Below the pieces are notes generated by a model. That model had not been told where the DNA came from, searched no databases, and saw only the letters and a program-made list of their open reading frames with translations. Of a DNA stretch of 64,000 nt, positions 5,468-40,943 are shown piece by piece. This DNA is from Candidatus Aenigmatarchaeota archaeon (GTDB taxonomy: Archaea; Aenigmatarchaeota; Aenigmatarchaeia; QMZP01): positions 32,001 to 96,000 of the forward strand of contig JBDRSV010000010.1 of the NCBI GenBank assembly GCA_043824495.1. The letters run 5' to 3'. The position numbers and the translations under genes were made by a program. The first letter of the stretch is position 1. Every line of letters begins with the position of its first letter.

Positions 5468-5588
5468 TGCGCCAGCCGGGAGTGTCGGTCTCCACCCGTT
5501 GATATAATATGTATTCATTCGGGAAGAGTCATTCGAACCCGGATCTCCACCGTGGCAGGGTGACGTCCTACCATTAGACTACTAGCGC
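5468..5588 (-). tRNA. tRNA-Gly(GCC) with 50-nt intron at 59/60 (intron 5482-5531); CCA not encoded
   Basis: Acceptor GCGCTAG/CTGGCGC, anticodon arm TCACC-CTGCCAC-GGTGG, T arm CCGGG-TTCGAA|T-CCCGG after removing the intron. BHB with bulges AAT and ACT. Confidence 0.92.
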
Positions 5589-35583: not shown

Positions 35584-36006
35584 ATGTATGAGCTAAAAAG
35601 AGTTGGCGTAGTATCTGTGGGTAAAATATTTGCTTTTATAGGTTTAATTTTGGGTATAATTAACGCCGTACTAATAGGTATAATATTAGTGGCTGCGGGA
35701 GAAGCTCTCGGTAGTCTTAGTGCATTATCATTGTTAACTGGAGGATCTGATCCAATATCATTATTCTTAGCAATGGGAATGGGAGCTGTTATAGTAGTGC
35801 CTATACTGTACGCTATCTCAGGTTTTATTGGAGGGGTAATAGTAGCATTTTTTTACAATCTTGCTGCCGGTAAAATCGGCGGAATAGAAATGGATTTACA
35901 AAACGCAGGATCTAATGTACAAAGAGTTCAAAGAGAAGAAAAGTACCAACAGCCTCCACCTCCAGATAGATATCCACAAGATAAGTACCCAAGAAGATAT
36001 TACTGA
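35584..36006 (+). CDS. DUF3566-like membrane protein
   Basis: LKRVGV.S..K...FYNLAAGKIGGIE. Confidence 0.6.
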   Translation: MYELKRVGVVSVGKIFAFIGLILGIINAVLIGIILVAAGEALGSLSALSLLTGGSDPISLFLAMGMGAVIVVPILYAISGFIGGVIVAFFYNLAAGKIGGIEMDLQNAGSNVQRVQREEKYQQPPPPDRYPQDKYPRRYY

Positions 36007-37741
36007 TATTCATCTAGAAGTTCTCTTTCATCTGGTGTTAATTTACTTTCTATTTTCTTTAGTTTTTCTACATCTTCGTGAGAAAGGAAAACATTGAGAA
36101 CATCGCCTTCTATTATTTCTTTACCTATTGTAACTCCTTGCATAGAAACAGCTACTTTGTCTCCCATTTTTACTTTAGAGATATTATCTCCTCTAAGTTG
36201 AAGTTCTTTTATTTCGCCTACAATATCATTTCCTTTTTTGAGTCTATAGGCTGATTTTAGAGTTCCTTTCAAAACTTCAACACCGAAAATAGCGGGCTTG
36301 CTTGCCCTGAAAACATAACCAGGTAGAACTCTTACTCTTCCAGGCCTTGTTATACTTTCTAATATTCTAGCTTCTTTTCTGGCTCTTTCATCCTTTTTCC
36401 ACTTTTCATAATCTTCTACGAGCCTGTAAATGACATCGGAATGGAATACAGATATATTGTTGTCTTGGGCCATTTTCAAAATATTAGAATCAATTTTGAT
36501 ATTGAAACCAAAAATAACAGGATCTTTCAAAACTCTCATTTCCATTATATCAGATTTTGTGATGTTTCCTACAACAGCTTTTCTTATAGGGACATTTTTA
36601 TCTTTCAGTGTTTTAATCAAAGCCTCTAATCCTCCGAGTGTATCAGTTTTCAGAAGAGTTCCTTCATTCTGTGTTTCAATTTCAACCTCTTCGACTTCTG
36701 CCCTTAGTTCTTCAATAGCTTGGTCTATATCGGATTCGTTTGCAACAGCCCTCAAAGGTGAACCAGGTATAACGTCTTCTAAATCAGAAGCGGCTATTTT
36801 TATTCCAGCAGCAGCAGATACGGTATCGACATTAACAAAATTACTATTTTTTAATTCTTTCAAAATCTCAGGTTCTAATAAAGCCTTGACTTTGGTTTTT
36901 ATTATTTTGTTTCCACCAATAATTATACAGTCTCCTCTTTTGATATCTCCGTCATATAGGATAACATCTATTGTTGTTCCCAAACCACGAAAATTTTTTA
37001 CTTCAAGAACAGTTCCTTTACCTTCTCCATTAGTTAAGATAAGTCCTCTTTTTAGAAATTTCTGGGAAATACCACTTAGTGTCATAAGCAGTTCAGGAAG
37101 TCCTTCTCCGGTGTGAGCGCAAATTGGAACAACAGCTATTTGTTTTGAGAAATCTGATATCCTGTCTATTCTCTCAGCTTCAAATCCCCTAACACCCAAC
37201 TGTCCAATTATTTTATATATTTTTTCTTCTAGAGCATCTTGAACTCTTTCTGATTGACAATTGTAAGTAACAGTAAATGGCTTATCTTTTTGTGGCATCC
37301 AACCAGCAATTCTATCAAGTTTTGTGATGGCTACCATGAAAGGAGTTTTGAATTGTTTTAAGTAATTCAGACTCTCTTCAGTTTGTGGTTGAAATCCTTC
37401 CATCACATCAATAACAAGAATGGCCAAATCAGCAATAGCTCCGCCTCTTTTTCTAAGAGTTGTAAAAGCTTCATGTCCTGGTGTGTCAACAAACAATAAG
37501 CCAGGAATGGTTAACTTAATGTTCATCTTCTCCAACAAATTACCAGCAATTTTTTTAATTAGTTCTGTAGGAACTTTAGTTGCTCCTATTGTTTGTGTGA
37601 TGGCTCCTGCCTCCCCTTTTACTACAGAGGTTCCCCTAATTTTATCCAGTAAACTGGTTTTACCGTGATCTACGTTTTCGGTTGAGATAATACTCAATGT
37701 CCGACTACGACCACGATAGGTGATCTGAGTTTTTCAATCAT
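36000..37741 (-). CDS. infB: Translation initiation factor aIF5B/IF2, interrupted by a 23-nt BHB intron (37676-37698)
   Basis: Exon 1 MIEKLRSPIVVVVGH plus exon 2 gives GHVDHGKT after splicing. DTPGHEAF, TKLD and other motifs are present. Confidence 0.93.
37676..37698 (-). other. Archaeal BHB intron in infB pre-mRNA
   Basis: Helix TCGG/CCGA, bulges ACA and AAA, intron stem TTGAG/CTCAA. The unspliced frame hits TGA. Confidence 0.88.
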
Positions 37742-39084
37742 ACTCGTTTTAGACTTTTATAAAAATCAAGTTCCTCCTTTCCTTTATTTGTAAACGAATA
37801 AATTTTTTGTCTATAGTGGTTTTTATCAATTTTAGCTTTTAAATAGTTCTCTTCTTCGAGTCTCGTTAAGAACATTCTTGTGGTTATTTGGGAAAGCCTT
37901 AAAAATTTTGCAGATCCTAAACTTGTATTAAATCCGTTGTTAACAGAATCTAAATATTTGTAAAGATAAACTTTCTTATTATTAAAAATGTTTCTTACTA
38001 ATTTATTTTTCCTTTTCTGATGAGTTATGCAACCTAATTTAAGTAATTTTATAAAATTACTTCTATTTGTTATTCTCACTGACCAATATCCCTTTTTACC
38101 CGTAATATAGTACATTTTACTTGTTCTTATTCCTATAATTTTGCATATATTCTTGAAGAATAATGCATTCTCTCTACTTTCTGTAGAAAAATTTACTTCT
38201 TTATGAGAAACACCAATATCACCTCTTGACAATCCTCTGAAGGTCTCTATTGAAAATTGTTTTGAACTAAGTGTCAAGTTCATACAATATTCCATAATGT
38301 AATAGAAAACCTCAGCCAACGTAGAGTTATGGATATTAAGAATACACACACCGTGTGATGCAGATACTCTAGAGTTCTTAATTATTTTTATATTGTCTTT
38401 TAATAGTCCAAACTCTGACCAATATTCTTCAAGATTTCGAATCGTATTTTGATCTTTTTCAGGAAATAGTATTTGCACTTTCCATAAATCCTTTTTTATA
38501 CCTAAAATAGATTCAGCGGCTTTGACGAACCAAGCTATCTGAGATCCATCTGCATTAGAAAATGAAAATCTATCTAAATGCTTCCCTTTTTTTCTACTCT
38601 TAAAGCCTTCACAAAAATAAGCTCCAAAGAGCTCCAGTAAGCTATAATTCCCTTTTCTAATAGGTATGAGTTTTGGCAATTCAAATGCATTATTCCCCTT
38701 AGAGTAAATCCATAAAAGAAGTCTATTGTTTTCTAATTCAAATTTATGAAGAGGGTATCCTCTGATTGTTTCTCTTGGTATTATATTGAGTAGATTTGCA
38801 TAACCCTCTTTTTTTACGCTGTTTCTCTCTTTTGGAATACTTATTATATTAAAATAGATATTTTGTGGTGTCTTAATATTATTTGCAAGATGAATAGGCA
38901 CTGTAAATCTCACATCTTTTGTTGTTTTTAGCACAGCGGGAAATGTGGCATCTTTAATTTTTATTAGGGCTGGTTGAACATCATTTAATTTAAACTGTCC
39001 TATTGAAGATTTTTTAGTTACAATAATGTAGCTAGATTGATTATGTCTGCCTTTGCTCTGTTCATAAATTCTTCCCTTTAACAT
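37738..39084 (-). CDS. Free-standing LAGLIDADG-like endonuclease with C-terminal wHTH
   Basis: LLELFGAYFCEG...FSFSNAD and TFRGLSRGDIGV helices; its stop overlaps the infB ATG. Confidence 0.65.
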   Translation of the reverse strand: MLKGRIYEQSKGRHNQSSYIIVTKKSSIGQFKLNDVQPALIKIKDATFPAVLKTTKDVRFTVPIHLANNIKTPQNIYFNIISIPKERNSVKKEGYANLLNIIPRETIRGYPLHKFELENNRLLLWIYSKGNNAFELPKLIPIRKGNYSLLELFGAYFCEGFKSRKKGKHLDRFSFSNADGSQIAWFVKAAESILGIKKDLWKVQILFPEKDQNTIRNLEEYWSEFGLLKDNIKIIKNSRVSASHGVCILNIHNSTLAEVFYYIMEYCMNLTLSSKQFSIETFRGLSRGDIGVSHKEVNFSTESRENALFFKNICKIIGIRTSKMYYITGKKGYWSVRITNRSNFIKLLKLGCITHQKRKNKLVRNIFNNKKVYLYKYLDSVNNGFNTSLGSAKFLRLSQITTRMFLTRLEEENYLKAKIDKNHYRQKIYSFTNKGKEELDFYKSLKRV

Positions 39085-40478: not shown

Positions 40479-40797
40479 ATAATTTCTTTTTGAATTAAAT
40501 ACAATGGATACTTCAACTTTTATTTCCTTTGGAACCCCAGAGAGAGATAATTTCTTCTACTAACCCACATAGCCAGAGCGTTCCTGATTCTTTGTATAAT
40601 CCGTCACTCTTTATAGTCCTGGCCAGAACCGGCTCCGTAACAGAACACACAGCCGGAGAACCCTGAACTATACGCCTGTTCATAGACGAAGCCATATAAA
40701 ATATGTGCTGATGACATGAAATTCAGCAGTGACAGCTAGTAAGCAGAGAAGAAAACTGAAACTGTGGTGAAATCTTGAGTGAACAAGCTACTGAACA

Positions 40798-40943
40798 CCG
40801 TTGCCCGTAGGAGCAACTGGCATCACGATGATCATAGCGAAGCGCTATCATAAACGATAGGTGCCTGAACGTCAATGCGAACTACGAGCGTTGGAATGCG
40901 AAATTGCTGACAAGCGACGCAAACGGCAATGATGGTGTTCGTC
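40798..40943 (+). repeat. DGR template repeat (TR), 146 nt including two BHB inserts (40834-40853, 40903-40923)
   Basis: 146 minus 20 minus 21 equals 105 nt, the VR length. Confidence 0.93.

Follow-up and report, generated by a model that had tools for sequence, protein, structure and literature searches.

We report that the gene for translation factor aIF5B in a genome of the DPANN phylum Aenigmatarchaeota is very probably interrupted, within the codons of its P-loop, by a 23-nt bulge-helix-bulge (BHB) intron that would be removed from the pre-mRNA by the enzymes of tRNA splicing. The gene lies in a 64,000-nucleotide stretch of contig JBDRSV010000010.1 (positions 32,001 to 96,000, forward strand), which was analyzed at its full length and is referred to as the window; all coordinates at the aIF5B locus are window positions on the minus strand. 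The genome carrying the window, G000, comprises 1.01 Mb in 29 contigs and is 80% complete. aIF5B is a universal and essential translation-initiation factor. Five lines of evidence are directly established, i.e. the structure as a predicted fold, the exact restoration of the reading frame, the conservation with covariation, the single copy of the gene and the reproducibility of the sequence, and on this basis we have high confidence that positions 37698-37676 are a genuine BHB intron of aIF5B pre-mRNA spliced by EndA and RtcB.

At the aIF5B locus, an ATG at 37741-37739, which overlaps the stop codon of the preceding open reading frame (ORF) in the arrangement ATGA, opens the sequence MIEKLRSPIVVVVGH, which then runs into a TGA stop. 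The insert at 37698-37676, ATTGAGTATTATCTCAACCGAAA, shifts the reading frame and places an in-frame UGA immediately after a split His codon. Further downstream, and in a frame other than that opened by the ATG, lies an ORF of 565 aa (36000-37697) that is identified as aIF5B by its Pfam domains (GTP_EFTU, GTP_EFTU_D2, IF-2, GTP_EFTU_D4). Removal of 37698-37676 in silico gives GTC GGA C|AC GTA GAT CAC GGT AAA ACC, which reads VGHVDHGKT and is followed by 557 further codons in frame. The gene is divided as follows:

Exon 1 of aIF5B, 37699 to 37741, minus strand: the ATG, 14 codons and the C that begins the P-loop His codon (MIEKLRSPIVVVVG-H).
BHB intron of 23 nt, 37676 to 37698, minus strand: A, UUGAG, UAUUAU, CUCAA, CCGA and AA in this order.
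Exon 2 of aIF5B, 36000 to 37675, minus strand: the AC of the His codon, then VDHGKTSLLDK..., with 557 codons and a stop.

A preliminary description of this DNA had placed the start of the gene at 37741 and a 23-nt insert with a TGA and a frameshift at 37676-37698, which is exact to the base, and the canonical cuts that it suggested restore the frame of GHVDHGKT exactly. Exon 2 is 52-62% identical to the aIF5B genes of 36 relatives across their full length, while exon 1 encodes the conserved N-terminus IRSPI-x3-GH of the relatives and aligns with their intact N-termini, e.g. MKNKTRAPVIAIVGHVDHGKT in G001, which is of the same genus. An intein reading of the insert, which would call for an in-frame insertion encoding a self-splicing domain (N-terminal Cys/Ser...C-terminal His-Asn), was rejected, the insert being 23 nt long, out of frame and carrying a stop.

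Left uncorrected, the 565-aa ORF has its start codon, a TTG, within the insert; its product opens with MSIISTENVDHGKT and is missing the Gly-His of the P-loop. The same product is on record, exact in all 565 residues, from a Logan assembly, in which the gene call starts at the TTG within the intron; the expectation that automated annotation would truncate this gene is therefore borne out by a public gene call. Gene callers thus make exactly the call that would be correct if translation restarted at the TTG (37697) or later, a truncated aIF5B were functional and exon 1 were an unrelated leader peptide. We consider such a restart very unlikely. The first Gly of GxxxxGK[ST] is held to be required in P-loop NTPases and is missing from the restarted product; moreover, what would be a leader peptide is the conserved N-terminus of aIF5B in relatives, and the frame of exon 1 joins that of exon 2 perfectly after the canonical cuts.

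Because G000 is a metagenome-assembled genome (MAG) in 29 contigs, an artefact of assembly or sequencing, which the preliminary description had named as a possible source of the insert, deserved consideration. However, the identical 23-nt insert recurs with the same neighbours in a contig that Logan assembled separately from run SRR26275509 (SRR26275509_33775, 21.4 kb), so that no single assembler accounts for it, and homologous inserts are present in MAGs from many unrelated studies, leaving this explanation with a practically negligible probability. It could also be argued that the reading frame is broken as it stands and that the case rests on DNA, in which case aIF5B would be a pseudogene inactivated by a 23-nt insertion whose BHB-like fold is coincidental. 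This is extremely improbable in our assessment: aIF5B is a universal factor and G000 holds one copy of its gene, the other matches being only EF-1alpha and EF-2, both uninterrupted, such that the intact second copy that the preliminary description had allowed for is absent from the assembly; the 558 codons of exon 2 (stop counted) form an open frame that keeps all domains; and 16 inserts at the same site with compensatory, fold-preserving changes, as described below, are not produced by decay.

The predicted RNA structure supports an intron. We folded 71 nt without constraints and compared the minimum-free-energy (MFE) and centroid structures, both of which recovered the BHB arrangement; the fold has a free energy of -21.6 kcal/mol (z = -3.3), and none of 200 shuffled sequences was as stable. 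The inner stem with its 6-nt loop stacks on the 3' strand of the central helix. All of the elements that had been described beforehand (helix TCGG/CCGA, bulges ACA and AAA, and stem TTGAG/CTCAA) are in the MFE fold, and the outer pairing CGTGGTC/GATCACG is found as well and extends from 7 bp to 10 bp. The structural elements and their positions are:

Central helix, 5' strand UCGG, 37701 to 37704, minus strand: in exon 1; 4 bp; from fold and covariation (columns 24-27 with 56-59).
Central helix, 3' strand CCGA, 37678 to 37681, minus strand: in the intron; from fold and covariation.
5' bulge ACA, 37698 to 37700, minus strand: the predicted cut, AC|A, separates 37699 from 37698.
3' bulge AAA, 37675 to 37677, minus strand: the predicted cut, AA|A, separates 37676 from 37675; the bulge does not vary among the 16 same-site introns.
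Inner hairpin h', 37682 to 37697, minus strand: 5-bp stem UUGAG/CUCAA with loop UAUUAU; from fold and covariation.
Outer helix, 5' strand UAUCGUGGUC, 37708 to 37717, minus strand: exon 1 coding sequence; in the MFE and centroid structures.
Outer helix, 3' strand GAUCACGGUA, 37661 to 37670, minus strand: exon 2 coding sequence; from the fold.

In the BHB of pre-tRNAs, the central helix contains the anticodon bases and splicing takes place at 37/38 (PMC4090602). Because the 5' strand of the central helix in aIF5B is in the exon, as are the anticodon bases of tRNA, cuts after the second nucleotide of each bulge match the tRNA 37/38 rule, and the same rule restores the motif in 15 other introns at the same site and in five introns at a second site.

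To place the insert among its relatives, we used a survey set of 371 species genomes of the class and the pattern AAACRTNGAYCAYGGNAA, an 18-mer composed of the 3' bulge and the second exon. The pattern occurs in 17 places in 16 of the 371 genomes, compared with one place for a reversed-pattern control. One of the 17 is a chance match in another ORF; the remaining 16 are BHB introns of 23-32 nt, the excision of which gives GH[VI]DHGK[TS]. Eight are in aIF5B and eight interrupt the same nucleotide of its paralog aIF2-gamma, in the host context ...PEVNIG.VGH|VDHGK..HSEE.KRGIT, and one genome (G156) has both; no aIF2-gamma gene is found in the 80%-complete assembly of G000. Three of the other aIF5B introns are from the same family as G000 (G041, G044, and G045; each 30 nt with in-frame stops) and four from other families of the class (G156, G219, G223, and G307). 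In the majority of relatives, GHVDHGKT is uninterrupted, and the empty sites include close kin, i.e. G001 in the genus of G000, and G018 in the genus of the intron-bearing G044 and G045. When the pattern scan was extended to the whole collection, the sites were confined to records labelled Aenigmatarchaeota or 'archaeon'; 12 bacterial matches lacked a GTPase context, contained stops and were set aside as chance matches. A survey of relatives for the insert, as recommended in the preliminary description, therefore reveals a patchy presence with eight same-site aIF5B introns in the class, and the proposed BHB intron has gained counterparts in seven other aIF5B genes and eight aIF2-gamma genes with strong covariation in the core.

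This covariation was quantified in an alignment (A1) of the 16 same-site introns over 14 core pairs. Standard pairs are formed in 90% of cells as opposed to 67.5% in shuffled data (0 of 500 shuffles reached the observed value), and if the partners are slid by 1-3 columns only 26-46% of cells pair. Changes on both sides are seen in 11 of the 14 core pairs, including all ten inner-helix pairs; one pair of the central helix is C-G in nine sequences and U-A in seven, and the central helix as a whole pairs in 95% of cells. The spacing of the bulges is identical across the 16 aligned introns. We conclude that the aligned sequences display the pattern of a conserved RNA structure and not that of decaying insertions.

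The same introns share a stop codon near their 5' end: UGA or UAG stands right after the split His codon in 12 of 16, and the remaining four, including introns whose length is divisible by three, reach one within 2-5 codons. A stop codon at the foot of a hairpin is also what marks the take-off site of phage T4 gene 60, and the aIF5B stop, directly after the break and at a hairpin foot, resembles it. Ribosomes might accordingly hop over the 23 nt as in gene 60, or shift frame, and no RNA would be spliced. We regard this explanation as highly improbable, because no pair of take-off and landing codons restores GHVDHGKT (the next CAC after CAU is beyond the Val-Asp codons, and the next GGN is beyond the His), because frameshifting cannot rescue the 30-nt in-frame inserts with stops that many relatives have, and because the conserved element is precisely a 4-bp helix with two 3-nt bulges.

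The proposed BHB intron of aIF5B is also placed in a wider context by a second intron site, 15 nt downstream in the Lys codon (A|AG), which harbors introns of 18-34 nt in aIF5B of G004, G016, G172, and G245 and in aEF-2 of G061 (..IRNMGIVAHIDHG|KTTLSD..). Each of them has a 4-bp helix, e.g. AUGG/CCAU or ACGG/CCGU, together with an AAA 3' bulge. These five are a minimum, as only matches read by eye were counted and 11 others were left out; the DNA pattern for the second site is unspecific, with 16 matches across the class, about equal to the reversed control. The aIF5B intron thus appears to belong to a family of related mini-introns in P-loops of Aenigmatarchaeota that occupy the same nucleotide in aIF5B and aIF2-gamma and a position 15 nt downstream in aIF5B and aEF-2. 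Directly after the Lys of GHVDHGK, there are apparent inteins in aIF5B of G066 (L046) and G159 (L064) and in aIF2-gamma of G124 (L090) and G271 (L095), and in the latter two genes the BHB intron and the apparent intein are located within six codons. A further interrupted aIF5B gene, that of G070 (L047, C21:5300-6600), was not counted as intron-bearing; its frame changes by 2 nt well downstream of the P-loop (~25 codons after it, 17 nt being present where 15 are expected), probably by sequencing error.

We also considered whether the organism has the means to splice. An RtcB gene is present in G000, and at least eight of its 23 tRNA matches span 95-181 nt compared with the 71 positions of the model; in the four long matches whose alignments were read, inserts of 36-52 nt are situated in the anticodon loop. 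ARAGORN fails on most of the long tRNA genes tried. Because tRNA genes of G000 are interrupted, the organism must splice BHB introns, and because the entire assembly yields only 23 tRNA matches, disrupted or split tRNA genes may have been missed. The longest span is that of a full-model match at C8:7344-7524 (181 nt), and the window itself has a weak, partial tRNA match at 5519-5581 on the minus strand (29.4 bits, model positions 8-63) that ARAGORN does not call. The RtcB gene (contig C2:319-3141, plus strand; loci L048/L049) is a 1002-aa open frame in which the Pfam match is split between profile positions 1-52 and 49-426, suggesting from the sequence that this RNA ligase contains an intein.

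Several points weigh against an EndA/RtcB-spliced intron in aIF5B. First, the core and the outer 10-bp helix are not continuous: next to the core there is a single G-C pair, followed by a 3x3 internal loop. The register of the outer helix varies among relatives, and the predicted structure fits a relaxed, and not a textbook, hBHBh' motif. Second, EndA was not found in the 80%-complete G000 by a PF01974 search, by tblastn with EndA proteins of relatives or by inspection of one spot that may be syntenic. Of 31 related genomes searched, 29 have EndA, the exceptions being G000 and G009, and among those 29 are G001 of the same genus and the intron-bearing G004 and G016. The enzyme of G016 comprises 399 aa and has an N-terminal domain and two stretches of catalytic type; an EndA type of roughly 185 aa occurs as well. 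Incompleteness of the assembly is the best explanation for the absence of EndA from G000. Third, a loose genome-wide BHB scan of G000 gave 41,761 matches compared with 41,610 in the reversed sequence. The scan for BHB-rescuable frameshifts that had been proposed was carried out with stricter structure and ORF-rescue filters and left 39 candidates versus 20 in the reversed sequence, none of which was convincing; because these filters also missed the aIF5B intron at the threshold for upstream extension, the genome scan is uninformative rather than negative. The BHB motif alone carries little information, and the case, therefore, rests on context and comparison. Finally, we infer RNA cleavage and ligation themselves from sequence and modeled structure, not from transcripts.

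A metagenome scan for the spliced or unspliced junction (GUCGGAC|ACGUAGAUC) returned only an intron-less aIF2-gamma of another archaeon. On metagenome contig Ga0081529_114777 (L121:6805-6827, minus strand), an uninterrupted aIF2-gamma contains the 23-mer GTAGTCGGACACGTAGATCACGG, which is identical to the joined aIF5B exons of G000; at the sequence level, this identity shows that the target site is closely alike between the paralogs. In another part of the window, two stretches on the plus strand within the template of a diversity-generating retroelement have a fold like that of the aIF5B intron core (~40828-40850, AUGA-uca-hairpin-UCAU-aaa; 40897-40920, UGCG-aaa-hairpin-CGCA-aac), and an Rfam match to RT-16 RNA (66.6 bits) is located next to the same template at 40610-40796, plus strand.

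Based on the predicted fold, we propose that the exon sequence UCGG of the aIF5B pre-mRNA would pair with the intron sequence CCGA to form the 4-bp central helix between the ACA and AAA bulges, that the archaeal splicing endonuclease EndA would cut after the second nucleotide of each bulge, and that RtcB would join the exons and probably circularise the intron. The joined codons GGA CAC GUA GAU CAC GGU AAA ACC would encode the complete G1 motif GHVDHGKT in an aIF5B of 572 aa, and the spliced product would contain the peptide SPIVVVVGHVDHGK. By contrast, because UGA directly follows the split His codon, unspliced mRNA would yield a peptide of only 15 residues. Speculatively, the in-frame stop that the introns conserve at their 5' end may be a safeguard against the synthesis of a P-loop-disrupted, potentially dominant-negative protein from unspliced mRNA.

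How did related introns come to occupy paralogous genes? One possibility, which we hold tentatively and with slightly less than even confidence, is that the mini-introns are one mobile family homing to the P-loop sequence GGN CAY RTN GAY CAY GGN AAR, such that a protein-free hairpin of 20-30 nt would spread between aIF5B, aIF2-gamma, and aEF-2 and between lineages. This is suggested by the occupation of the identical nucleotide in two paralogs; by arms that look alike across genes (UUGAUUGUC...GACA(A)UCAA in aIF5B of G307 and aIF2-gamma of G156); by the patchy distribution with empty sites in sister species; by the identity of the 23-nt exon junction in G000 aIF5B to the uninterrupted aIF2-gamma of an unrelated metagenome contig; and by the stop that immediately follows the split codon in 12 of the 16 introns. 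Two features would make such mobility workable: the flanking exon itself supplies half of the splice signal, and the in-frame stop would act as the safeguard suggested above. Adjoining aIF5B in the window is an ORF of 448 aa (37738-39084, minus strand), the TGA of which overlaps the aIF5B ATG; it has a weak match to LAGLIDADG_3 (E 4.8e-4, below the cut-off) and a PadR-like winged-helix tail (E 0.008). Collaborative homing by means of this ORF was considered and is unsupported, as it has no homolog in five relatives searched, four of them intron-bearing, and no similarity to the G124 intein.

If the intron reading is true, production of aIF5B, an essential translation GTPase, requires the tRNA-splicing machinery, and with two further translation GTPases in the class likewise dependent on it, the start of protein synthesis in these reduced genomes would rely on EndA and RtcB. 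In practical terms, truncated gene calls can affect DPANN marker-gene sets, phylogenies, and completeness estimates. The occupation of the same nucleotide in paralogs, next to points of intein insertion, would also offer a natural system for the spread of BHB introns, which is an open question for tRNA introns (PMC4090602). In the parts of the literature accessible to us, the only published BHB introns in coding regions are those in cbf5 of Crenarchaeota (PMC2738675; reference lists in PMC5829648 and PMC12397907), and nothing relevant was found in the searchable literature on introns together with aIF5B, DPANN or Aenigmarchaeota; as far as we can tell, coding-region BHB introns in aIF5B and its fellow GTPases are unpublished.

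The closest known system is the BHB intron of cbf5 pre-mRNA in Crenarchaeota, the splicing of which has been shown experimentally (Watanabe 2002; Yoshinari 2006; Yokobori 2009, PMC2738675). Both are short BHB introns in an essential coding gene related to RNA or translation, patchy among relatives by gain and loss, and missed by annotation, and removal by the tRNA splicing endonuclease and ligase, shown for cbf5, would apply to aIF5B as well. The aIF5B intron differs in that it is in a translational GTPase of the DPANN phylum Aenigmatarchaeota, that it splits a catalytic P-loop motif, and that related introns in the phylum occupy the homologous nucleotide of paralogous genes. With pre-tRNA introns (hBHBh' at 37/38; PMC4090602, PMC4033280), it shares the 4-bp helix with its 5' strand in the exon, the two 3-nt bulges, the predicted cuts after the second nucleotide and a length of 23 nt, within their usual range of 12-25 nt, and G000 has tRNA introns too; on the other hand, its host is an mRNA, its outer helix is coding sequence with an internal loop, and it has an in-frame stop at its 5' end. 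Intron transposition has been proposed for tRNA genes of Thermoproteales (Fujishima 2010, as reviewed in PMC4090602 and PMC4033280), where similar introns at several host sites likewise imply movement and the range of targets is considered to be limited by the need for a BHB, whereas the targets here are near-identical P-loop coding sequences of paralogous protein genes, and the likeness of sequences is what suggests movement.

P-loop inteins in aIF5B/IF2 and other NTPases use the same highly conserved insertion region. They are excised from the protein and bring along domains of their own for splicing and homing, whereas the 23-nt intron encodes nothing and would depend on RNA enzymes of the host. 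Lastly, the splicing of HAC1/XBP1 mRNA by Ire1 and tRNA ligase or RtcB (PMC4090602) is similarly protein-only, non-spliceosomal, frame-shifting, and sealed by a tRNA ligase; it differs from the splicing proposed for aIF5B in its endonuclease, Ire1, in its recognition motif and in serving a regulated stress response.

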